Below the pieces are notes generated by a model that saw nothing but the letters and a program-made list of their open reading frames with translations, was not told the origin of the DNA and ran no database searches. From Laetmonice hystrix (taxonomy: Eukaryota), in the NCBI GenBank assembly GCA_965235115.1, contig OZ249447.1, positions 3,224,001-3,288,000 of the forward strand: a DNA stretch of 64,000 bases. Reading direction: 5' to 3'. Below, piece by piece: positions 1,734-56,251 of the stretch (position 1 is its first letter; each line of letters starts with the position of its first letter). Made by a program: the position numbers and the translations under genes.

Positions 1734-2912
1734 ACTTGTTGAAGTCTACAGTCAGCTGATATCAGCCGCCACAGTTGTGGTGATACACAGCTTGGCTGAC
1801 CCTCAGGTACGCCTGCAGGTCATGCAAAACATGACAGCCACACAGGAGCTAGGTAATCAGCCAGCCAACCGTGGCTACTATATGACAAGATCCTGACAGC
1901 AGGCACAAAGGAATTGGATCAGGACAAAACTGCCACTCGCAGGTCTTTGCATGCATTCAACCTTTAAGTTACAATTGACACCAGCAAGTATTTGTAGGAC
2001 CTTTTGGTGGGACAAAGGGAGAGGGTGTGCTGTATGAGGTGTGTGGGGCTGTGAGACCATTCCCGCAGGTAGTCAGTGTAAATTGCCACGAGGTAGGCAA
2101 CAGCCATATTACGGTGTCACAGTCGTGGTCACCCATAATATATGTGGTCAGAGGTGTCTCATGAAGGGTAGCCACACTTGTGTTTTTGACGGTCCATCAG
2201 GAATGTTATCCTACCAGGAACTGCGAGCACTCGGTTGTGTCGGAACTGTAGCACTAGCACACGGAAGGTTGTCATTGGACCGCACTGACAGGTGGATCAA
2301 AACTTGTCAACCACCTTCAGGTAGAAAAAAATGAGTTTTTTAACAAGGACAGGTGGCAAGACCGATCTAAGCGTCTGTTAATAGAGGTGAATAACAGCCA
2401 CCTCTCTATTAATGTGCTGAACCGACTTGTGCATTACCTTATTCATGGTCAGTATTATCGGTCTATCAGAAGGAGATACATTTTGAAGGGAAATAGTTAT
2501 TTCACAAATAAGCCCTGAGACTTGGTGTTGAAGAAACAGTCCACCTTAAAGAAAACGGTTACATTGATTCATAAATTGGGCGGGCTTTGAACAGAAGCTC
2601 TTTGTAAATCTCTTTTCAAATGTCATGTGTGACTCTCAGGTCCTCCAACCAAAGATTGGAAATGCCAATCATTTCTACTAGATGGACATGAATGTAGGAG
2701 AGTTAGTAAACATGAAAAAACAACCCCATTTCCTACAGTACCAACGATTTCTTAAAGGAAAGCATTGAGGGGAGGTATTAAAATCGTTGCATGGTCTGTC
2801 AAGGCGAGGTGTAATAAAGACAGGTATATATATTTCTGGTGCGGTCCCCCAGTGGTAACTACTGAAATGCCCAGCAGGTTGGGCCAAGGTCAGGGTCAAG
2901 GTCAGGTGATTA

Positions 2913-3532
2913 TGTCGTACCGACGAATTTTAGGCTAAATTTTCATTACATTATTTGGTAAGAGTTTTCTTCAAACCTTATTCGTGTTAAACTTCAGTTT
3001 GCCTTAAGCTTTATTCTTGTGTCATACAGCAATCTAGACAGTGTAATGCCAAATGACATTGTGTTCTTTGATGGTGTGGATGGCAGCTTTGATGCCAGAA
3101 TTGTTCTAACAATAGTAGAAGGACATCTATAGGTGCACAGTTAGAGAACCTTAATCCCCGTGTTTTAGCACCTCTTTGATCCCGTGTCCAGCGTCAATGT
3201 GTCCGTTTCACAACTGACTTCTATCTCCTCTATGTCTTTGTTCAGTCAACCGTGTTCAGTCATTTGAGTCTGGCACAAAGATAATTTCAGTACAAGCAGG
3301 CTGCCCACTAAGGGCTTGGGCCAATAGCTGGCCAGGATTATTTTGTTCTATTTGATTGGCCGGTTTGCGACCAGCCATTTTCCTTATATACTCATGTTAT
3401 ACCTTGAAACTTCACTTGGAATTTTATAATGACACGACAATAAACTACAGCTCACATCAACAAGATTGTCGTCCTTCTGCTTGACACTCAGTTTTCTGGA
3501 TGTTGTAAGGTGAGCCAAGTGGCCTTACGATA
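2913..3532 (+). repeat. 5' LTR (620 bp)
   Basis: No difference from 4860-5479 found by eye; imperfect terminal inverted repeat TGTCGTA/TACGATA. Confidence 0.95.
3321..3444 (+). promoter_or_regulatory. LTR U3/R signals: CCAAT, ATTGG, TATA-like box, poly(A) signal
   Basis: CCAAT 3321-3325, ATTGG 3355-3359, TATATA 3385-3390, AATAAA 3439-3444 in the classical LTR order; repeated at +1947 in the 3' LTR. Confidence 0.65.
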
Positions 3533-3533
3533 A

Positions 3534-3551
3534 TGGTGGAGAGCCCGGGCA
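3534..3551 (+). other. Primer-binding site, tRNA-Ala-like
   Basis: TGGTGGAGAGCCCGGGCA, 1 nt after the 5' LTR; 15/18 match to the complement of a metazoan tRNA-Ala(AGC) 3' end as I recall it (TGGTGGAGAATGCGGGCA). Confidence 0.7.
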
Positions 3552-3625
3552 GTTAGCACTTTTTAGCTGCTGACGTCCCATATGTGAGCTATCACCCAGA
3601 GGACAGAACCAGCCTGAAGACAACC

Positions 3626-4762
3626 ATGGAGGGATTTCTTCCCACACCTGTTGTGACATTCCTAAATGGAGCTAGAAACCTGGGAGTGTCACTAAGCTGG
3701 AATATTACCAGTTCACAGGGGAAGAACTCTGTACTTCTAGAATGGAGTATCCAGCCAAAGTACAGCTCCACTGGAAAGTCCACCTGCCACAAGTCTCCCA
3801 GCAGAAGACAGCGGGATGCCCAGCGGTATCAGGCATGGAGAGAGAAGCAGAACCAGGCAGCCACTAAAACAGCGCCTAGGATTCAACAGGAGAAAACCCA
3901 GAACAGGTCAGTTAACAAGGCCAAGAACAACAGGTCAGTCAATGGTCCAAATCATCAGAAGTCAGGAGGTGGACGTCAGAAACATCAGAAGAAACGACAA
4001 GGGGTGCAGCACAAGTCAACGCCTACAGTTGTCACCCATCCACCTCAGGACCAGATCCTGCCTCCTGTGGTGGGTGCCATATCACTGGATCCAAACCCTT
4101 CTAGATCAACGAGATCAACACAGACAAACAGGCAGGTCACGGTCTCCTGTGAGGTACAAACCCCTCAACTCAATGTGGAATCTAAAGATGTTCAAACTGT
4201 CTGTTCATTTACTGAGTCAACTAACAGCAGCACTCAGTCTGAACCAGTGGGCACAACCAGTGTGCCAACCCAAACCCGGACCAGCAGGGGTGATCAGAGT
4301 ACCCAGACTGAGGGAAATCACCCCCAGAAGACAAGACAGTTGTTGACACCCATGTCTCTCAAATCTAGTGATCTGGAATTTCCAGATCAGCACTTCATTG
4401 ACTCTCTAGTCAGGAATAGAAGTGATCCGGGGACACTGCCCATTCTGCACAGTTCAAAGAGAAATCAGGACAAAAGAATCACCTTGAAAGTGGCATATGG
4501 ACAACAGACATATGAGACACCTAAGTATGATTTTTCAGGTGTTGCTGCCACTAAGGAGACTTTGATAAAACATTTTCAGTTATCTGGCATATATCCTTCA
4601 GCATGTTATCTTCTTACAAAATACAGAGGACAGCACTATATTGTACCAGATACAGTTTCTTTTGGGCAGGTGAAACTGGTGAAACATGATAGTGTACTTT
4701 CTGCGACGCTCATAGTTTATAATTATGGAAAAGGGAGTTATGTTGTCCAAGACCACCAATAG
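3626..4762 (+). CDS. LTR-element-encoded protein of unknown function, 378 aa (N-terminal Trp domain, basic linker, 6 TQT/LC8-type motifs, putative C-terminal ubiquitin-like domain)
   Basis: Uninterrupted, non-repetitive ORF filling the internal region; first in-frame ATG at 3626 in good Kozak context (CAACCATGG); TAG at 4760-4762; no RT, IN, PR or CCHC motif visible. Confidence 0.8.
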   Translation: MEGFLPTPVVTFLNGARNLGVSLSWNITSSQGKNSVLLEWSIQPKYSSTGKSTCHKSPSRRQRDAQRYQAWREKQNQAATKTAPRIQQEKTQNRSVNKAKNNRSVNGPNHQKSGGGRQKHQKKRQGVQHKSTPTVVTHPPQDQILPPVVGAISLDPNPSRSTRSTQTNRQVTVSCEVQTPQLNVESKDVQTVCSFTESTNSSTQSEPVGTTSVPTQTRTSRGDQSTQTEGNHPQKTRQLLTPMSLKSSDLEFPDQHFIDSLVRNRSDPGTLPILHSSKRNQDKRITLKVAYGQQTYETPKYDFSGVAATKETLIKHFQLSGIYPSACYLLTKYRGQHYIVPDTVSFGQVKLVKHDSVLSATLIVYNYGKGSYVVQDHQ

Positions 4763-4845: not shown

Positions 4846-4855
4846 AAAGAAGGGG
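4846..4855 (+). other. Polypurine tract
   Basis: AAAGAAGGGG, 4 nt upstream of the 3' LTR. Confidence 0.75.
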
Positions 4856-4859
4856 CACC

Positions 4860-5479
4860 TGTCGTACCGACGAATTTTAGGCTAAATTTTCATTACATTA
4901 TTTGGTAAGAGTTTTCTTCAAACCTTATTCGTGTTAAACTTCAGTTTGCCTTAAGCTTTATTCTTGTGTCATACAGCAATCTAGACAGTGTAATGCCAAA
5001 TGACATTGTGTTCTTTGATGGTGTGGATGGCAGCTTTGATGCCAGAATTGTTCTAACAATAGTAGAAGGACATCTATAGGTGCACAGTTAGAGAACCTTA
5101 ATCCCCGTGTTTTAGCACCTCTTTGATCCCGTGTCCAGCGTCAATGTGTCCGTTTCACAACTGACTTCTATCTCCTCTATGTCTTTGTTCAGTCAACCGT
5201 GTTCAGTCATTTGAGTCTGGCACAAAGATAATTTCAGTACAAGCAGGCTGCCCACTAAGGGCTTGGGCCAATAGCTGGCCAGGATTATTTTGTTCTATTT
5301 GATTGGCCGGTTTGCGACCAGCCATTTTCCTTATATACTCATGTTATACCTTGAAACTTCACTTGGAATTTTATAATGACACGACAATAAACTACAGCTC
5401 ACATCAACAAGATTGTCGTCCTTCTGCTTGACACTCAGTTTTCTGGATGTTGTAAGGTGAGCCAAGTGGCCTTACGATA
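4860..5479 (+). repeat. 3' LTR (620 bp)
   Basis: Copy of 2913-3532, followed by TSD ATTA. Confidence 0.95.
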
Positions 5480-6474
5480 ATTACTTGGCCCGGGTGAAGC
5501 CTGGGTAGTGTTATCGTCTACGTCCAGCCTTGAAGACTTGAACTTTGACCTTGACTTATACAGGCACCCCCGAGGTGGCAAGACTGGCTGGCCTGTGTGC
5601 AAGTTTTGTCACTTTGAGGGATCCGTTAAACTTGTCACCGCTGTGTTATAAAGTGCCCTTAACACAAACTGATCGTTACAAATGGTGTCATACTGTGGGA
5701 ACCGTCTCAGGGAGGGCTCCAGGGGTTTCCGAGCTAGGGGTTCTACATCTTACCCCACTGGTGACGTGGGGTTGTAACACGGATCACCTTACTACCTTGG
5801 TGTTCATTCGACCGTGTCGGTTTAAATCACAGCCAGGGGATCAGTCACCGTGATGTTGGGGTTTCTTAATGACGCCTGCTCTCTGTAAGGTGGCATTATA
5901 ATTATTGCACGTTTATTTTGGGCGTGTTTATGATATCTTTTAGCGACCTGTAGAAACTAGAAGGGGTTTTGGTTTTACCAGGGTTTTACCCCATCCTGGG
6001 TTTATGTATGTGTCCTGAAATCTCACAACCAGAGGTCGGAATATTGGACGAAATGACAAAAATATGTAGCCCGAAGTGATTGCAATTCTAACAGAAGGTG
6101 TTAAGAAGAACTCAGGTAGACCCCAGCCACTCTGCAAGATCTATTTCAGAGACAGAGAGATGGTGGAAGGTAGGACCAGATTCTCCCCAAATTAAAAAAG
6201 GACGATTGGGGGTGGTTGCTACCTGTTTCCCACATGTGGCTCACCTGGACAGGTAGGGATGGGCGATCAGATAAGGAACGCCTTGCTCAGGGGGGTGTGG
6301 CGTCCATGGGTCAGCGGGTAGATCGGGGTGGTAGATAGGGAGCCAGGGGGTGGGGTTGGCAGGTGTGGGTAGTGGGGGGGTGTGTATGCCACTTCTTACC
6401 TAGTCTGTCTGGACGTGCCTCCAGACACCCCAGTCCCCACCTCACCCCAATAATTAAAGTCGGTCATACCATCC

Positions 6475-17521: not shown

Positions 17522-17554
17522 CTAATGCATATAATTTGTCTGGTCACAATCCAT

Positions 17555-18355
17555 GATACCTCTCTCGTAGACTCTTTGTGCTGAGCTGGGTACTTCTCTG
17601 GTAGACTCTTGTGTTGAGCTGGATACCTCTCTAGTAGACTCTTTGTGTTGAGCTGGGTACCGCTCTCGTAGACTGTTGTGTTGAGCTGGGTACCGCTCTC
17701 GTAGACTGTTGTGTTGAGCTGGGTACCGCTCTCGTAGACTCTTTGTGTTGAGCTGGGTACCGCTCTCGTAGACTGTTGTGTTGAGCTGGGTACCTCTCTC
17801 GTAGACTGTTGTGTTGAGCTGGGTACCGCTCTCGTAGACTGTTGTGTTGAGCTGGGTACCGCTCTCGTAGACTGTTGTGTTGAGCTGGGTACCGCTCTCG
17901 TAGACTGTTGTGTTGAGCTGGGTACCGCTCTCGTAGACTGTTGTGTTGAGCTGGGTACCTCTCTCGTAGACTGTTGTGTTGAGCTGGGTACCTCTCTCGT
18001 AGACTGTTGTGTTGAGCTGGGTACCGCTCTCGTAGACTGTTGTGTTGAGCTGGGTACCGCTCTCGTAGACTCTTTGTGTTGAGCTGGGTACCGCTCTCGT
18101 AGACTGTTGTGTTGAGCTGGGTACCGCTCTCGTAGACTCTTTGTGTTGAGCTGGGTACCGCTCTCGTAGACTGTTGTGTTGAGCTGGGTACCTCTCTCGT
18201 AGACTCTTTGTGTTGAGCTGGGTACCTCTATGGTAGACTCTTTGTGTTGAGCTGGGTACCTCTCTCGTAGACTCTTTGTGTTGAGCTGGGTACCTCTCTC
18301 GTAGACTCTTTGTGTTGAGCTGGGTACCTCTATGGTAGACTCTTTGTGTTGAGCT
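17555..18355. repeat. 33/34-bp minisatellite, about 24 copies
   Basis: GTTGAGCTGGGTACC(G/T)CTCTCGTAGACT(GT/CTT)TGT units. Confidence 0.96.
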
Positions 18356-18356
18356 A

Positions 18357-18760
18357 AGTTGACTCCACCAAGGAATTCCTAACGACCTCCCGGTAAAGTG
18401 TGTGGGGAGAAGGTTTTCGTGGAAGTTGTCATTGTTGAACATGGAGATGTTTGTGAATGTCACATTCCTGTAGAACCGAGAGACTGTCAGATTGTTGTCA
18501 GACATTCAGATTGTTGTCAGACATTGATGTGTCCGTGTTGGCAGTGGTCGTAGTGACGGAATGTGTGTTTGATGGATCATGACACGAACGGGAACTCCCG
18601 CTCTGCATTCATTGTGTCGATAAAACTCATGTTAACAACTGTTGAGTATGTTTAATTGTTAGGATTGATTACTGATTAATAGTGCGTGATAACTTCATGT
18701 GTGAACAATGCTGGGTGCACAGAATGGTTGCGGATAATGTACGTTCTCCCATCTCTCTGT
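18357..18760 (-). mobile_element. Possible decayed CR1/L2-type LINE ORF2 fragment (end of APE plus linker)
   Basis: Minus-strand translation SMSDNNLTVSRFYRNVTFTNISMFNNDNFHENL...IPW resembles the SDH..I...ITYR.FK.FN...F..DL...W pattern following the endonuclease; short and degenerate. Confidence 0.4.
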
Positions 18761-44354: not shown

Positions 44355-46123
44355 TCATGTGGTCTGGACTGATTGACCGTTACTGACAGGGGTGCCCAGC
44401 CACCAGAACTAAGTACGTGGGAGATTGCTCTGTTGGGTGGCCAAGGAGTCATGAATCATGCTTTGTTACATGCGACATGGCAATAATGGGATCATAAGTA
44501 ACATGTCAGTGGGATGACCTTGGGGTCATGGGTCACAGGTCACTCATCAACAGGTGCGTGATGTATACCCCCTAGAGACCGAGGAGGTCAGAAGGCAGAA
44601 ATAGGTACATAATTGGGGAAAAACGGCACTGCAAGAGGAGCGTCTTCCCGTCCCATCATCAGCATACCTTGGGTCGTTTTACATGCCGGGTATAGGTTAG
44701 TGGGCATTAAGTTTGGAAATTGAGAGCCTACATGCTTTATGGCCAAATGGGGATTTTTATAAGATACATCTGCGGATAGTGTGGGAGGGTCTGTGTCGGT
44801 ACTCGGGGACCGTTTCACAATCAGCGATGGTCCATCAGAACGGCGACGGACAGTCTGCCACCTAGTTGGGGGGCCTGGTATTTTAGGTTCTTCGCGGATC
44901 CGATCATTTGTGAAACGACCCCCTTGCCCAGCACTGAGCAGTGTAGGTGTTGCCTGGTGGTGGTGGTGGCCGGTGGTGGTGGCCGGTGGTGCGGGAGACG
45001 TCAGTCACGTACCATCAGTCTCACTAGTGTCCCTCTCCCCCTCCCAGTTCGGTGAGAGGATTACCCTCCGTACACCACCCACCTCCTCAGTGAGAGATGT
45101 CCCGCCGTGAGGTGTGACAGGTAGACAAGGTGGGACATCTGTCACACCTGTCTACCCAGCTCATCAATACCAACGTTACCTGAGGAACTCCCGGCAAATT
45201 CTGACACGTCATGCGGTCTCAAACATCATTTTGTTTTATTTATTTATTCTTCACACAATATCATGTAAGAATATCTTGCCTGTCTCTGGTAGAATTTGTT
45301 TGACGTTTCCTATTAATTTGGAATGACCCTTTTTTAAAGTCCCACATCATGTAAACGTTTAAAATCACGGAGGATCAATTTGTTGCCACTATTGGGTTTG
45401 TTTTTGCCCGGCCTTGTTAATGTAAAAACCAGTAAGCTGTAGGTAGATGTACAGTGGGGTTGTCTGAGGACGGCAGGCAGCCTGGGTGGCCCAGTTGATC
45501 CCCTAGACTTTTTCAAATCTTACTAACGGCCGGCAGCCATTTGATGTCAGTTGTATTTAACGTGTGATTTCACTGAGGCAAGCACCGAATGGTTGACACA
45601 TTTCAGCACGAGACTTTTTGAGCTGTTTGGGATGCCAAGATGCCAGATATTTTCATTTGCTCTGTGTGTTTCTTACATAGCCTACACCACTAAGGGCAGC
45701 AGTTTGTCCGGTCCCTGGCCTTAAATTAGAATTGCTACTTATTTGGTGAAATGTGGAATTGATCGAATGGAAGTTTATTGATGATTGTCTATGGGAAACA
45801 GGTGGAATTTTGGGAGGAACGAAATAATGCATCATGTGAAGTGTATTGATACATGTATTTTGGATGTCTTGGCCTTGAATGGTTGTATCATGTATTCTCT
45901 ATCCAATGAAAAGTTGTTTATACCAAGTGTAATTCCATCTGCGGCCGTTAAATGTAGTTTTTATGTTTTACTACATGTTCGTGGCACATTCAAGTTAAAA
46001 AAAACCAGCCTGGGTTGTTATTGAGAAGAGGGGAGGTGCAGGCGGTCTGCCTGTACACCGCGGTCTGAGCAACGTTACCAGCCACACAGAGCGGGACTCA
46101 TGGACCCTGGCCCTCCCCAGAGA

Positions 46124-46812
46124 GGTACATGGGTCGTGGCTGGCAGTCTTAGGGCCGACTCCTAGCCGGGATACACGGGTCTTGGCTGGCAGCCTCAGGG
46201 CTGACTCCTAGCCGGGGTACACGGGTCGTGGCTGGCAGCCTCAGGGCCGACTGCTAGCCGGGGTACATGGGTCGTGGCTGGCAGCCTCAAGGCCGACTCC
46301 TAGCCGGGGTACACGGGTCGTGGCTGGCAGCCTCAGGGCCAACTCCTAGCCGGGGTACACGGGTCGTGGCTGGCAGCCTCAAGGCCGACTCCTAGCCGGG
46401 GTACACGGGTCGTGGCTGGCAGCCTCAGGGCCGACTCCTAGCCGGGGTACACGGGTCGTGGCTGGCAGCCTCAGGGCTGACTCCTAGCCGGGGTACACGG
46501 GTCGTGGCTGGCAGCCTCAGAGCCGACTCCTAGCCGGGGTACACGGGTCGTGGCTGGCAGCCTCAGGGCCGACTCCTAGCCAGGGTACACGGGTCGTGGC
46601 TGGCAGTCTCAGGGCCGACTCCTAGCCGGGGTACACGGGTCGTGGCTGGCAGCCTCAGGGCCGACTCCTAGCCGGGGTACACGGGTCGTGGCTGGCAGCC
46701 TCAGGGCCGACTCCTAGCCGGGGTACATGGGTCGTGGCTGGCAGTCTCAGGGCCGACTCCTAGCCGGGGTACACGGGTCGTGGCTGGCAGCCTCAGGGCC
46801 GACTCCTAGCCG
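46124..46812. repeat. 46-bp GC-rich minisatellite, 15 copies
   Basis: GGGTACACGGGTCGTGGCTGGCAGCCTCAGGGCCGACTCCTAGCCG. Confidence 0.97.
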
Positions 46813-47164
46813 AGGTGGTTTACAATTGGTAAAAGCTCACGTACTCAAACAAACCGAACAACTCCTTCAACCAATTTCCTTTGTTTCCGTCTCCCCTGTG
46901 TAATATACGGTGAGACTGTAACACGTCTGAAGGCTGAACTTCCCCAGACAGACCCTGACGGTTGGAAGTCACTGCCTGTGTTTATGTTACACGTGGATGG
47001 CAGAAATCAATCGGCGTACGTTCACATCGCTTGATATTGTTGGTATTACGGATAAGGAGTCTGGATAGATTTGTCATCAGGGCTTTACCTTTCAACGCCT
47101 AGATGAATAATGTAAAAAAAGTGGGAAATCATTGGCGAGGTGACGCCTTGGTGACCTGGGAGCT

Positions 47165-49253: not shown

Positions 49254-51416
49254 GTACGTCACAGTATATGGTTGATAATTACGTCACAACACTATTCAAT
49301 GAACAGTTACGTCACAATAGCATTACCGTCTACGTCAGAGTTAGGTAAGAGTTACGTCACTTTAACGAAAACGTCACAGTACTTTTACCAGGGACGTCAC
49401 CAAATACGTCACACTACTATGTAGTTGAGTCAGAATGCAGACATAAAGTCCAAATATACTCTGCGTCCACAACTCCACCAAAGACCCAAATGGTACTGCT
49501 ATTGATAGGAGAGTTCAGTATGTCATGGATGCAGGAATAAAAGAATCCGTCAGGTACATGTACACTGACTTTAAATTGAAATGATGACGTCAGAGACAGT
49601 CGTCGTGTACATCTGTCTGTGGTTATGGCCACTGATGTGGCCCCATAGTCTCTGAACTTTGTCATAAATAATTTGGTTGGTTTTGTAGAAAAAGTGGCTC
49701 CACTCTTGTCAGGGGATCTCCATATTTCATTCAGAATATCAAGAAGGAGTGAAATCAAGCTTGTGCTGTTAGGTTGATAAATGTTTAGCTTTCACAAAAA
49801 GTGAGTTTTTGTTTTTTTCATTAATTGACCTCTTCCTTGATGTGGAGCTGTGACAGAGTAAAGTGGAACATTTGACCTGATGGTTTATATTATACTAACT
49901 TTGCCTGCTACACCCAGTTACGACTTTGTGTTTGAGAAACATAACTTTGGAAACCATAAGCAGATGGTAAGCAACTTCTCCCGAATACATGATTGCGCTG
50001 GGATTATTTGTGCCCGGCTCACTCTGAATTCATGTCAGTCAAATTCCGTGTTTTATTCGCTCTGAATTTCTTTCACTGAAAACGGAAAATGTTGTGGATT
50101 ACAAGTGGTCACACAATGTAAGTTAAGAAAGCTCAATTCCAATCAGGTTTTAAGGAAACAACGTCATTTCCTGCTGATAGATGGCGCTTGGGTGGCTGGA
50201 ATATCAGCAGTCACCCTATTACCAGTCTTCTCTGCCCTGCCCCAGGACCTGGCATTCCCTGGGGCAGAGGTCAGTCAAGTCAGGCATTGTCTCGCTCAGT
50301 TAGAGAGTCCAAAGTCCATGAATTCTGAGACTAGGGCGGAAAAAAACCGGCCATGATTAGAAACAGGGGGTCATTTATCCTTCTTTAGACCAGTGAGTTT
50401 GATTTTTTAAATCCTGTAAAATAAAAACGACATTGTTTTTTTTATTATAAACTGGATATTTTTATGTTATCGTAGCATAAAGAAAAACTTGTGTTTGGGG
50501 CTGAGGATTTATAAGCTTACATAAAATACTCTGCGATTTTATGTATGACCTCGATAACAATTCAACCCATGCAGATACGGAGATACCTGTATAATAGGCC
50601 CCCTATGCAAGGCTACTGTCAACATGTACCAGGTTTTTGTAGGAATAACAAACTATTTTTGATTAAAACGGGCCATATAATACCTCATGCATGAAAGTGA
50701 CCGACAGTCTTCAAGTGGAGGTGATATATGAGGAATGCACCAGTAAAAAGTACGGACGACTAACAGCTGTGTGGGGGTTGATGTTGGTACCCCGCTCCCT
50801 CGCCCTGACCTGGGTGTGACCGCATAGACCCTGCCCACCAACAGGTCCTCTTACTGCCCTCACACGCCCTTGTCGTACAACCAGGCTGAGGGCAGTCAGC
50901 CCACAGCGGTTCAGGGATTCGTGTTGTCAGAACGAGGCGCGAACATTCTCTAGGGTTGTCTACTGAAAACATTGAAAATTTTAAAATATATCTGTGGGAC
51001 AAAAAGAAACCTGGTACCAGAAGATCGGAGGAGTTCAGCAAAACTTCTTGAAGGAGATAAATCCTCAATTAGAGTTGTTGATCAGTATGCAGGGCGTACC
51101 CCATGGGACAGCACAGGGAGAACCCTGAGATGGGAATGGACCAACTGTTGCATCTTCAGGGAGCAGTTAGTAATTGGGAAAGGGACCTTTAGTCAGTCAG
51201 GATCCCAACTTGCTCATGATGTTTGCACGGAACCAACGAAAATACCAGTAGGCTCTCGGTCTGTTGGCGCTGTGTGGACTGGAGTATTTGTTAATTAGTC
51301 GGATTAATTAAGAGATAGACCCTGAGAGACGCAGGACCTGTGAAAGTAACAGATGCGTGTATGTGGAGGCGGAGGGGGGCGGGGTGAGTCAAGATAGTGG
51401 AGGTCTTATTGGTGCC

Positions 51417-52130
51417 ATGCGACCCACAGAATGAACACACATGTGACCCCCAGAATGAACACACATGCGACCCCCAGAATGAACACACATGCGACCCACA
51501 GAATGAACACACATGCGACCCACAGAATGAACACACATGCGACCCACAGAATGAACACACATGCGACCCACAGAATGAACACACATGTGACCCACAGAAT
51601 GAACACACATGTGACCCACAGAATGAACACACATGTGACCCACAGAATGAACACACGTGACCCACAGAATGAACACACATGCGACCCACAGAATGAACAC
51701 ACATGCGACCCACAGAATGAACACACATGTGACCCACAGAATGAACACACATGCGACCCACAGAATGAACACACATGCGACCCACAGAATGAACACACAT
51801 GCGACCCACAGAATGAACACACATGCGACCCACAGAATGAACACACATGCGACCCACAGAATGAACACACATGTGACCCACAGAATGAACACACATGTGA
51901 CCCACAGAATGAACACACATGCGACCCACAGAATGAACACACATGCGACCCACAGAATGAACACACATGCGACCCACAGAATGAACACACATGTGACCCA
52001 CAGAATGAACACACATGTGACCCACAGAATGAACACACATGTGACCCACAGAATGAACACACATGTGACCCACAGAATGAACACACATGTGACCCACAGA
52101 ATGAACACACATGTGACCCACAGAATGAAC
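51417..52130. repeat. 24-bp minisatellite, about 30 copies
   Basis: GACCCACAGAATGAACACACATG(C/T); one unit near 51655 lacks 2 nt. Confidence 0.98.
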
Positions 52131-53470
52131 ACCAAATTAACACCCTTTCGTTACCACAAACCTTGATCATGAATCCGACTGGATTTTGGGCTGTTTTTAA
52201 AATTAAAACCGACACCATGTCATACAAGCCACAAAGACTTGAATATAATTTCAGAGAATATACGATTCAGTCGTCAGGTTATCTGTTCTGTAACTGTGGT
52301 CGGAGGGTGTGGCTGTTTCAGGGGTATTTTATGTAACCCCGATATGGGGTATTTTTGAAGGGTGTGACACTGATCGGGGTAGACTGTGTCCCCATATTAC
52401 GGAGCTGCCTGCCACCGTATCCAATATAAAGGGTCCAGTGATTGACCATATCCAGATGTTGAGGTCTGTATACCCTGTTACAGCCAGAAAACGGTCTCGA
52501 TTAGACACAAATGTTTAGGTCACGTTTATGGTAACACTGTTGCATTTCACCATTGCAGTAGAGAACCAAGGTTATCTGAAAAAGTAGATATGTTTTTATA
52601 TTTAGTAATTAGATTTAAAAAAGAAACGAAATGAATGGTGACATATATAGAGGGAGAATGAGGTACTCTAGCGGTCTGGTCTGTATCCTTGGTGGTTGTC
52701 ATGGTAACAAGTGATTAATACCCCCTTATTACCAGTATTGTCGACGACCCGTGGAAGAAGTCGGCCAGCTGACGGTCTCAGGTTCCACGTTCTGTGTGAA
52801 CCCAGTTGAATATTGCATTGTACAGAAGTGTTGAAGCCATACATGAAACCTGTGCTGTGAGCCACCGATGACAGCAGTGTATAGTGTTGAGAAGGCTGCA
52901 GAAAGATGAAGTGGACCTTAGTTTTCCAGGTTACATGTATAAAGGGGGATGTTAAATGTCAGGGGTAGTCAGGATCTATTGTAATCTTAAAGGTGGATCA
53001 GATTCTATCCTTTAGCCTCTACGAAATTAGGAAGCACGGAGTTCGTCCTTTAAGAAACAATTATCACACATTAGTTTGATTTGTGACACAAATTCCAGGA
53101 GAAAAAACGTGTAACGGTTTTCCGCAAGGATAAAATGATCTTTTTGTCCTTGAGCGCTGTAAATGTTGATTACCATTAGGCAGGCCTCATTGTGAGATCA
53201 AGAGGAAAAGCTCAGAGTATTAAAGGCGCCTGACGCCAGGTCGGAGCGGTGTTGATCCTTGGAGAAACGGGAAGAAAAAGGAAGGATTACTACTGGGGGC
53301 TGTGACAGTGATGGGTGAAGTGTTCTGGACAGGAATGGGCCAAGAGGGACAGGAGGGGAGAGAGGAGAGAGATAGGATCATTAATAAACAGCTTTTGTTA
53401 CATCTCATGGGAAGAACAATCGGAGCTTATATGAAAGCCGATATTTCCGGAGGAAGGGTGTGGCGATATG

Positions 53471-54878
53471 GGAATATTGTAACATCTGCTGCTCGGGATA
53501 CTGGAATGTTGTAACATCTGCTGCTGGGGATACTGGAAAGTTGTAACATCTGCTGCTGGGGATACTGGAATGTTGTAACATCTGCTGCTGGGGATACTGG
53601 AATGTTGTAACATCTGTTGCTGGGGATACTGGAATGTTGTAACATCTGCTGCTGGGGATACTGGAATGTTGTAACATCTGCTGCTCGGGATACTGGAATG
53701 TTGTAACATCTGCTGCTGGGGATACTGGAATGTTGTAACATCTGCTGCTGGGGATACTGGAATGTTGTAACATCTGCTGCTGGGGATACTGGAATGTTGT
53801 AACATCTGCTGCTGGGGATACTGGAATGTTGTAACATCTGCTGCTGGGGATACTGGAATGTTGTAACATCTGCTGCTCGGGATACTGGAATGTTGTAACA
53901 TCTGCTGCTCGGGATACTGGAATGTTGTAACATCTGCTGCTCGGGATACTGGAATGTTGTAACATCTGCTGCTAGGGATACTGGAATGTTGTAACATCTG
54001 CTGCTCGGGATACTGGAATGTTGTAATATCTGCTGCTGGGGATACTGGAATGTTGTAACATCTGCTGCTGGGGATACTGGAATGTTGTAACATCTGCTGC
54101 TGGGGATACTGGAATGTTGTAACATCTGCTGCTCGGGATACTGGAATGTTGTAACATCTGCTGCTCGGGATACTGGAATGTTGTAACATCTGCTGCTGGG
54201 GATACTGGAATGTTGTAACATCTGCTGCTGGGGATACTGGAATGTTGTAACATCTGCTGCTGGGGATACTGGAATGTTGTAACATCTGCTGCTGGGGATA
54301 CTGGAATGTTGTAACATCTGCTGCTCGGGATACTGGAATGTTGTAACATCTGCTGCTCGGGATACTGGAATGTTGTAACATCTGCTGCTGGGGATACTGG
54401 AATGTTGTAACATCTGCTGCTGGGGATACTGGAATGTAGTAACATCTGCTGCTGGGGATACTGGAATGTTGTAACATCTGCTGCTCGGGATACTGGAATG
54501 TTGTAACATCTGCTGCTGGGGATACTGGAATGTTGTAACATCTGCTGCTCGGGATACTGGAATGTTGTAACATCTGCTGCTGGGGATACTGGAATGTTGT
54601 AACATCTGCTGCTGGGGATACTGGAGTGTTGTAACATCTGCTGCTCGGGATACTGGAATGTTGTAACATCTGCTGCTCGGGATACTGGAATGTTGTAACA
54701 TCTGCTGCTCGGGATACTGGAATGTTGTAACATCTGCTGCTAGGGATACTGGAATGTTGTAACATCTGCTGCTGGGGATACTGGAATGTTGTAACATCTG
54801 CTGCTGGGGATACTGGAATATTGTAACATCTGCTGCTCGGGATACTGGAATGTTGTAACATCTGCTGCTGGGGATACT
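53471..54878. repeat. 32-bp minisatellite, about 44 copies
   Basis: GGGATACTGGAATGTTGTAACATCTGCTGCT(G/C/A). Confidence 0.98.
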
Positions 54879-56251
54879 TGTTACGTATACGATGGAGCGT
54901 TCTTCAAAGAGATCTTGAAATTAGGTCATTATCTCAATGAGCTTGTGGAGATAACAAAGTAATTCTGAACAAGAAGACAGACATCAAAGAACGCAGGAAT
55001 TGGGTTCCACCCGAATCCTGTCTGACTGAATTAACCCCTGACCCCGTCTATCTAACCCCGCCTTGTACTCGAGGCAAATCGTGGGGGTAATTAAGTATTT
55101 CAGTCGACCAAGTACATAGCCCTGGGGTATGACAGTCGCTATTAGTGGGGGTAGATCACACAGCCTAAGTACAAGGACTTAATTTGACCCCTGGCCAATT
55201 AACATAGCTGTAATAGTGGTAAGAAAATGTAAATTGGAGTTGAGGGTGGCTTGGTAAATACAGGAGCTGGCAGTGAAGGTGAGGGTATAAGTGGTGCCCA
55301 CCCAGATAGGGGGTTCTAATCGGGCAGGGGGTGGTTCAGGAGGGGGAGGGGGGGGGAGATGAACGCTATGTCTGGAACCGTTACGTCATATCACCACTGG
55401 TCGCGCCAAGCATTCATTAACCAAGCATTCATTAACCCGTACCGCTTGGAAATTCAAGCAGGAAGAATTGAGGTGTTGTCATAAGCAATATGACTTTGCA
55501 GTGTGATACCTTATACCGCTTAAAGCCGTGCACAGACCAATCGGTGAGAGCTATATTTAGGATATATGGAGCGCCCCTGGAGGGGGAAGTTGCCAACATC
55601 ACATGACAACACCTCACATGCCTGTTTTAAATTACCGTGGTAACCAGTTATGTGAGAGTGAAGTCTGTGCTCAATGTCAATTATTAAAAGGTTCGGCAAA
55701 GTCTGTTAACTTAATCACACAGCAAACTTTCCCCATCCACAAAAAATGGTCAAAATCGATGTAATGAATTCATGGATAGATTGGGTAGCCGACTAAGTTC
55801 CTTTCCAATAATTCTCCTCTCGTAATTTGTGTACATTAGTGTTTGTACTGTTAAATAGAAGATGAAATCGACAATTGAAATGGGCAAATTTGCATTTCTT
55901 TTCTTGGAGTCAGACAGAGGTCATCCCGTTGTCATGGGTCGCCTCGTGCTCAGCCTCGTTATGATATCAAAGACGCATCCACTGTGGGTAAATACAGCTG
56001 TTTGCTGAAGGAGGATTGTGTCAGTGTAGAGGGCCGGGTGGAGACGCTAGGACCGGCGTTCCTTCCTTCTCCACGCCAGCTGATTGAATCCCGCATACAA
56101 ACACGCTATCCGCGCGTCCCCGTCCAGTCAGCGTTCGCTGTGATTCATGGCAGACGACAAATGGAACGGAGCGTTCGTACGTCCTCCTGGGACGCGACGT
56201 CTCCCCGGACCAGCGTTCGCTCTGTGTACCGCCGTACGAACGCCGTCAACA

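Follow-up and report, generated by a model that had tools for sequence, protein, structure and literature searches.

The sole long gene of a young, non-autonomous LTR retrotransposon from the animal Laetmonice hystrix encodes a protein with six regularly spaced LC8-type motifs, whose anchor glutamines are maintained at the protein level by purifying selection. Judging from the motif sequences, the array quite probably binds host LC8, and the reading that we favor, with a rough probability of 0.55, is that it does so cooperatively, joining two chains in a rod that acts on RNA or DNA of the element itself. The element lies in a stretch of 64,000 nucleotides (the window), to which the coordinates given below refer.

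The window element is 2,567 bp long, with a single ORF of 378 aa, and consists of the following parts:

2909..2912, + strand: left target-site duplication ATTA (empty-site joint 2908>5480; the four letters fit either side)
2913..3532, + strand: 5' LTR, 620 bp, with ends TGTCGTA...TACGATA (TG..TA, not TG..CA)
3385, 3425 and 3439, + strand: putative promoter and poly(A) signals of the 5' LTR, namely TATA-like sites at 3385 and 3425 and AATAAA at 3439
3534..3551, + strand: primer-binding site, complementary to the 3' end of host tRNA-Ala, with one mismatch relative to the usual form of the family
3626..4762, + strand: single long ORF, 378 aa, in a strong start context; no Pfam family, not Gag
4846..4855, + strand: polypurine tract AAAGAAGGGG, preceding the 3' LTR
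4860..5479, + strand: 3' LTR, 620 bp, identical to the 5' LTR
5480..5483, + strand: right target-site duplication ATTA

The ORF sits between the two LTRs and not inside one, which corrects the initial annotation, where the protein was called LTR-borne. The insertion is not fixed, because the exact empty site (2908 joined to 5480) is present in contigs from three runs of one other sample. At least 64 matches to the protein were found in the host genome, 51 of them full-length and without stops, and they group at about 95, 72, 49 and 38% identity (lowest about 35%). Both LTRs could be resolved at 39 of 45 distinct fetched loci; 33 of these 39 carry a 4-bp target-site duplication, the LTRs are at least 99% identical at 35 and fully identical at 23. 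Family members measure 2.5-2.9 kb overall, lack pol, and have one ORF of 363-380 aa each without a Pfam match. The window element is a young, non-autonomous LTR retrotransposon and a recent insertion.

Some copies are organized differently. Tandem arrays in which adjacent copies share an LTR were seen at C21:17.97 Mb (L025-L027 and L050), with a period of 2,081 bp, and on C29 (L078 and L079). Contigs of runs X1 and X3 contain an LTR form that misses 489 bases (window 3021-3509 and 4968-5456) bounded by GT..AG; the gap resembles a removed intron, its short side being supported by 23 letters only. Matches to the tRNA-Ala 3' end cluster densely at G000:C6:11.20-11.26 Mb and C20:0.35 Mb, and on C6 and C5 the matches that were checked belong to tRNA-Ala genes (AGC and TGC).

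The six in-frame motifs were borne out in the ORF at 3626-4762 with the spacing first described, 12, 12, 14, 12 and 11 residues, the anchor Gln codons beginning at 4121, 4157, 4193, 4235, 4271 and 4304. Residue numbers count here from the Met of this ORF; the earlier numbering (180-241) designates the same Gln residues but was counted from an in-frame GTG at 3584, an offset of 14. The sites are:

4106..4129, + strand: site 1, STRSTQTN (Q166), passes the positional rules
4142..4165, + strand: site 2, VSCEVQTP (Q178), passes the positional rules
4178..4201, + strand: site 3, ESKDVQTV (Q190), hydrophobic residue at +2
4220..4243, + strand: site 4, TNSSTQSE (Q204), non-canonical TQS anchor (TQT, AQT or TQC in some relatives)
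4256..4279, + strand: site 5, TSVPTQTR (Q216), Pro at -2, predicted weak
4289..4312, + strand: site 6, GDQSTQTE (Q227), passes the positional rules

Although all six motifs are present, they are unequal. Under our own coding of the positional rules given in PMC6607443 (no internal Pro, no aromatic residue at -2, no large hydrophobic one at -4/+2, a large one at -3), sites 1, 2 and 6 pass (p=0.046 against shuffles) and sites 3, 4 and 5 fail. The anchor triplet (Gln at 0, flanked at -1 and +1 by mid-sized hydrogen-bonding or hydrophobic residues) corresponds at five of the six sites to a type found among the binders listed in Table S4 of the same source, the exception being the TQS of site 4. 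Five such binder-type anchors within 70 aa are unexpected when the whole protein (p=0.002), the disordered region (p=0.008) or the array alone (p=0.017) is shuffled, and a looser definition that covers all six sites gives p=0.02-0.03. As a control we turned to 10 Gypsy elements of the host genome, and none of 25 ORFs taken from them (20,248 aa) exceeded three anchors in 70 aa (zero in 5, one in 17, two in 2 and three in 1). A tandem repeat in the DNA as the source of the periodicity was rejected, in agreement with the initial annotation, on the basis of both the motif-centered 36-mers, whose pairwise identity is 31%, or 22% once the anchor codons are set aside, and the autocorrelation of the array DNA, which has no peak at lag 36.

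Evidence that the periodicity is kept at the protein level, as had been suggested, came from the homologs. We aligned 44 natural copies (50 fetched minus five duplicate loci and the truncated L007) with six full-length sequences from among eight homologs in ENA assemblies, several of them multi-copy and all 39-53% identical; the fragments P0008 and P0009 were left out. The anchor Gln is present at sites 1 to 6 in 50, 50, 49, 50, 43 and 43 of the 50 sequences (285/300 in total), and the initial annotation's check for anchors and spacing, whose loss would have spoken against an LC8 array, found both conserved across homologs. Sites 5 and 6 are missing from L031-L037, seven copies that make up a single, recently active subfamily and differ from the others in their C-terminal half, and one site is missing from P0007, so that six sites are not required. 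Among 13 representatives, pairwise identity is 0.92 in the anchor columns, versus 0.43 in the linkers and 0.39 at the 15 Gln that the disordered region has besides the anchors (permutation p=1e-4), and both CAA and CAG are used at five of the six anchors. Uncorrected pN/pS values, pooled over 15 pairs among six representatives, are 0.05 for the anchor Gln, 0.31 for the anchor triplets, 0.63 for the linkers, 0.32 for the N domain, 0.74 for the basic tract and 0.83 for the C-terminal domain; these figures are to be read knowing that the subfamilies are mosaics with common segments, so that neither the 13 representatives nor the pairs are independent, and that pS between subfamilies is near saturation. 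In the 50 sequences, position -1 varies among T, V, I, S, L, A and C and position +1 is mostly T, variation of a kind that the LC8 groove tolerates according to section 9 and Table S4 of PMC6607443. Site 3 is xQA in 28 of the 50 and site 4 xQS or xQY in 40. The open frames of young copies partly reflect their youth.

The remainder of the protein has three further recognizable regions:

3626..3751, + strand: conserved N-terminal module, residues 1-42, predicted with low confidence as a helix plus beta-hairpin; no known family
3791..3859, + strand: conserved basic helix KSPSRRQRDAQRYQAW, residues 56-78, which opens a Lys/Arg-rich disordered tract
4466..4735, + strand: C-terminal domain at residues about 281-370 with a predicted ubiquitin-like (beta-grasp) fold; a folded helix segment (250-280) lies ahead of it, and a C-terminal Gly-Gly is lacking

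The AlphaFold model, built on a shallow alignment of 19 sequences, shows the N-terminal helix-hairpin at low confidence, a helix at 60-78 and a confident domain at 250-370; residues 80-246 have no secondary structure and pLDDT values below 50 (about 30 in the array), and the LC8-type motifs are therefore predicted to sit in an intrinsically disordered region. Residues 56-135 contain 21 K/R versus 3 D/E, and the basic helix and tract are likely to serve in nucleic-acid binding, as their charge suggests, or in nuclear import. In a fold search with the C-terminal domain, UBL, SUMO, FERM, PB1 and Ras-binding domains made up nearly all of the matches listed, over residues 281-372, with a middling best Z of 8.3 (rmsd 3.0 over 96 aligned residues) and a best Foldseek E of 4e-3. 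These matches single out no ubiquitin-like subfamily and are consistent with a predicted beta-grasp topology. A conjugatable ubiquitin-like modifier was ruled out, the C-terminal ends varying among subfamilies and none ending in Gly-Gly. The domain is swapped among subfamilies, with 20-40% identity. The N domain alone gave a best Z of 2.4 on its low-confidence model, and the whole protein had no usable match in Pfam, in a sequence search of solved structures or in two Atlas searches. A Gag identity was also rejected: the model lacks a helical capsid domain and has a beta-grasp domain instead, Pfam finds neither gag nor knuckle, and comparison with the first ORF of a related Gypsy gave no similarity (probability 0.2%).

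LC8 forms dimers, each of which holds two client chains in parallel, and the host encodes canonical LC8, with three full matches to PF01221 and one partial match, on C18 and C1; a host LC8 sequence lies at L051:1498-1764 (minus strand). Motifs of eight residues at spacings of 11-14 leave linkers of 3-6 residues. In KANK1 the linkers have 3-4 residues and in Nup159 4-5, both proteins forming rods, and the individually weak KANK1 sites bind cooperatively (PMC12803091), whereas ASCIZ, with irregular linkers, forms mixtures (PMC10046861). A ladder of stacked LC8 dimers is suggested because the linkers of the window protein fall in the range of the KANK1 and Nup159 rods, unlike those of ASCIZ. Up to six LC8 dimers would then stack on two chains as a stiff parallel rod of roughly 20-25 nm (at about 0.35 nm per extended residue), in which weak sites could be rescued by cooperativity within the array. 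The ends of such a rod would differ, one carrying the basic N-terminal modules of both chains and the other their ubiquitin-like domains. The basic end might grip the nucleic acid of the element, preferring the copy that encoded the protein, while the exchangeable C-terminal domain might recruit or decoy a host or helper factor, and the element could thereby be packaged or protected while borrowing the enzymes of an autonomous Gypsy. Action in cis is suggested because a freely diffusing benefit could be exploited by copies without an ORF, yet 51 of the 64 or more matches are open; long-term selection in a helper-dependent element is most easily explained if the protein acts on the RNA or DNA of its own copy. 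That head and ladder are constant and the tail swappable suggests, in turn, that the partner of the tail, in host or helper, is one that changes. A structure prediction with two LC8 chains and two copies of residues 156-235 gave a median score of 0.61 versus 0.59 for one control, which speaks neither for nor against binding. The multivalent, dimerizing scaffold proposed in the initial annotation remains the best reading, with anchors under selection and LC8 present in the host, and binding itself stays a prediction.

Several known systems resemble this arrangement in part. In the linker L2 of KANK1 and in yeast Nup159, several LC8-type motifs, some of them weak individually, are separated by short, uniform linkers of 3-5 aa within a disordered tract, and form beads-on-a-string rods (PMC12803091, PMC12017986). 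These are, however, structural proteins of the host with measured binding, whereas here a mobile-element protein with predicted binding is concerned, whose array is flanked by a novel N domain and a predicted ubiquitin-like fold. ASCIZ/ATMIN likewise has a nucleic-acid-binding N-terminus followed by a disordered region with 6-11 xQT motifs (PMC5963919, PMC10046861), but its linkers are irregular (3-41 aa), its occupancy is heterogeneous and it senses the LC8 level, while the window protein has a regular array and no zinc fingers. Panoramix, in the SFiNX/PICTS complex, has tandem TQT motifs through which LC8 dimerizes a nucleic-acid-binding complex in the conflict between transposon and host (PMC7861614, PMC7919418); it is a host silencing factor with two sites, whereas the family described here is on the transposon side with four to six. 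Dimerizing region, LC8 site and nucleic-acid-binding domain also co-occur in rabies P, as they do in SFiNX. Rabies P, U19 of herpesvirus 7 (two sites, 11 apart) and foamy virus Gag are parasite-encoded users of LC8 (Table S4 of PMC6607443; PMC12017986; PMC3705263), although these sources list one or two sites for each, and the domains they describe are not common with the window protein. As regards element structure, BHIKHARI and ENS-1 are single-ORF elements of the form LTR-PBS-internal-PPT-LTR, without pol and mobilized in trans (PMC12067270); unlike the window element, whose protein is not a Gag, they are described as encoding a capsid-fold Gag. TRIMs such as Helenus also lack pol and are mobilized in trans, and Helenus of animals makes 4-bp duplications and depends on Gypsy, but TRIMs are described as shorter than 1 kb and as encoding no mobilization protein (PMC10886601). 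An assignment to TRIM/Helenus was rejected, the window element having 2,567 bp and an ORF under selection.

The main rival to the scaffold is that the array is a sponge or counter-silencing decoy which titrates LC8 from host complexes, for instance those of piRNA-guided silencing. The six sites per chain would suit such a role, and the C-terminal domain is swapped and poorly constrained (pN/pS 0.83), as in an arms race; in Drosophila, moreover, transposon silencing by Panoramix/SFiNX depends on LC8 (PMC7861614, PMC7919418). We consider it unlikely nonetheless, because a sponge needs strong sites and no fixed spacing, whereas here several sites are weak and the spacing is fixed, so that sequestration, which the initial annotation had also offered, fits less well than a scaffold. 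A sponge would also benefit all elements equally, which makes it hard to maintain under selection, and would face at least three full LC8 genes in the host. To our knowledge, Panoramix is restricted to flies. The Thr, Gln, Ser and occasional Cys at a 12-residue period suit stacked beta-arches, and the xQT units could in principle form a self-assembling beta-repeat (solenoid or amyloid-like) or be sites for another dimeric hub. This appears improbable: the model has no fold there (pLDDT about 30, from the shallow alignment of 19 sequences), conservation is highest at -1/0/+1 and low outside this triplet, and prolines break the linkers. Somewhat less probable still is the dynein link, already raised by the initial annotation and disfavored here, in which LC8 bound to the array couples RNPs or particles to dynein for movement toward the nucleus or germ plasm. 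Foamy virus capsids need the interaction of Gag with LC8 to reach the centrosome (PMC3705263), but in LC8 structures the same client occupies both grooves (PMC12017986), and the predicted protein model lacks a capsid fold.

SQ and TQ are the motif of ATM/ATR-type kinases, and the array might instead be a cluster phosphorylated by them, with Thr or Ser indeed at -1 of sites 1, 5 and 6 in all 50 sequences. We regard this as very unlikely: position -1 is L, V or I at site 2 in 35 of 50 and V or A at site 3 in 49 of 50, residues that cannot be phosphorylated, yet the Gln is kept, and the Thr at +1 is conserved. Chance motifs in the Ser/Thr/Gln-rich low-complexity tract of a passenger ORF could be argued from the composition of the array (39% Ser/Thr), the modest single-sequence p-values and the young copies, but this explanation is largely refuted by purifying selection that is specific to the anchors and holds across subfamilies whose synonymous divergence is near saturation, by the anchors also kept in the homologs of another organism, and by the 25 control ORFs, which have no such arrays.

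As to the source of the enzymes, an envelope-bearing Gypsy group is likely to mobilize the family in trans, because its LTR is common with that of an L013-type subfamily and similar ends and primer sites occur in further Gypsy families. The gag-pol-env Gypsy at G000:C10:9632723-9644325 (minus strand; L124/L125) shares 607 bp of LTR, together with the tract preceding it, with the L013-type subfamily at 93% identity; its LTRs are identical to each other, and it carries a first ORF, a full pol and an 843-aa third ORF that matches Baculo_F (E 1.2e-8). Envelope-carrying elements of this kind have been surveyed in PMC13524379. Searches of the host genome found no autonomous element with the LTR of the window subfamily itself; 13 further LTR loci of this subfamily are solo, truncated or rearranged copies, and all 10 matches to the tract-LTR junction adjoin matches to the family ORF. 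The family profile matched neither the ORFs near 40 other tRNA-Ala primer sites nor the 10 autonomous Gypsy elements of the host genome.

Profile searches also retrieved distant proteins that share only the N domain and basic helix, at 20-30% identity. The profile included the array, which biases the hits toward xQT-bearing proteins, and the relatives are not mutually independent; with this reservation, eight of the 16 examined have at least three anchors in 70 aa, seven of them with shuffle p <0.05. These arrays lie 50-135 residues behind the helix, several at a spacing of 11-13 (13, 11, 11, 11 in P0072; 12, 12, 12 in P0082; 12, 12 in P0081). The other eight have none to two anchors in 70 aa, including all three Mytilus proteins, which are the only named relatives of the window protein; P0083 and P0084 have one each, though their close relatives P0075, P0081 and P0082 carry arrays. 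The C-termini of the distant relatives differ from each other. That of P0067 has a chromo-like stretch (Pfam E 1e-3, below cut-off) and that of P0073 a BEN domain above cut-off, which may be a gene-model fusion; the others received no domain assignment. Scans of viral and metagenome contigs gave 12 and 539 pattern hits, none confirmed. We would tentatively venture, as a possibility rather than an expectation, that these proteins belong to a widespread, undescribed class of animal retroelement cargo in which a constant N domain, basic helix and LC8 ladder at 11-13 spacing are joined to interchangeable C-terminal effectors (ubiquitin-like here, chromo-like in P0067), and with which satellite LTR elements might commandeer the LC8 hub for rigid, bivalent scaffolds, either as a shield for their own nucleic acid or as a means of loading it into the particles of an enveloped helper. 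The same hub serves flies in piRNA-guided silencing (PMC7861614, PMC7919418).

A literature search, with subscription journals and Repbase outside its scope, turned up neither a report of a transposon protein with an LC8 array nor a description of the element itself, which may already be catalogued in Repbase. If the predicted binding holds, the window protein would be a rod-type multivalent LC8 client; this design is already known from host scaffolds, and the new part, within the literature searched, would be that a transposon encodes it, as the only long gene of a satellite and neither Gag nor enzyme. LC8 would then stand on both sides of the conflict between transposon and host. The finding bears on the question why LTR elements that lack enzymes retain coding cargo under selection. 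The natural variants differ in having four, five or six sites and in which C-terminal domain they carry, and so form a series on valency and linker length versus cooperativity.

Other LTR elements came to light during the searches. A second young non-autonomous family (L085, L089, L092 and L111), with identical LTRs of 358 bp and about 1.95 kb of internal sequence, has the same tRNA-Ala primer site and a single, different ORF of about 257 aa with a CCHC knuckle, a basic tract and a coiled coil; this ORF has at most two anchors in 70 aa and does not match the profile of the window family. The L140/L141 element also carries a third ORF, of 860 aa. At L103:5523-8132 (minus strand) lies an internally deleted Gypsy derivative with the LTR-end type and primer site of the window family, which retains part of RNase H and integrase and has a second copy 6.4 kb away. 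Short basic motifs (AxTRSR, NLRS or NLRP) occur near the start of many Gypsy first ORFs (L122, L124, L128-L140), and the same type was noted at the C-terminus of P0085; they recall what we take to be the chromatin-binding sequence of foamy virus Gag. A 497-aa ORF with a dual-specificity phosphatase domain (L107:3838-5328) lies 2.3 kb behind a match to the tRNA-Ala primer site, in a stretch where an LTR pair was not found. Finally, the window contains minisatellite arrays at 45-790, 1235-1740, 17540-18390, 45990-46930, 51320-52260 and 53330-54900, with units of 74, 100, 33-34, 46, 24 and 32 bp, which explain several of its other long ORFs.
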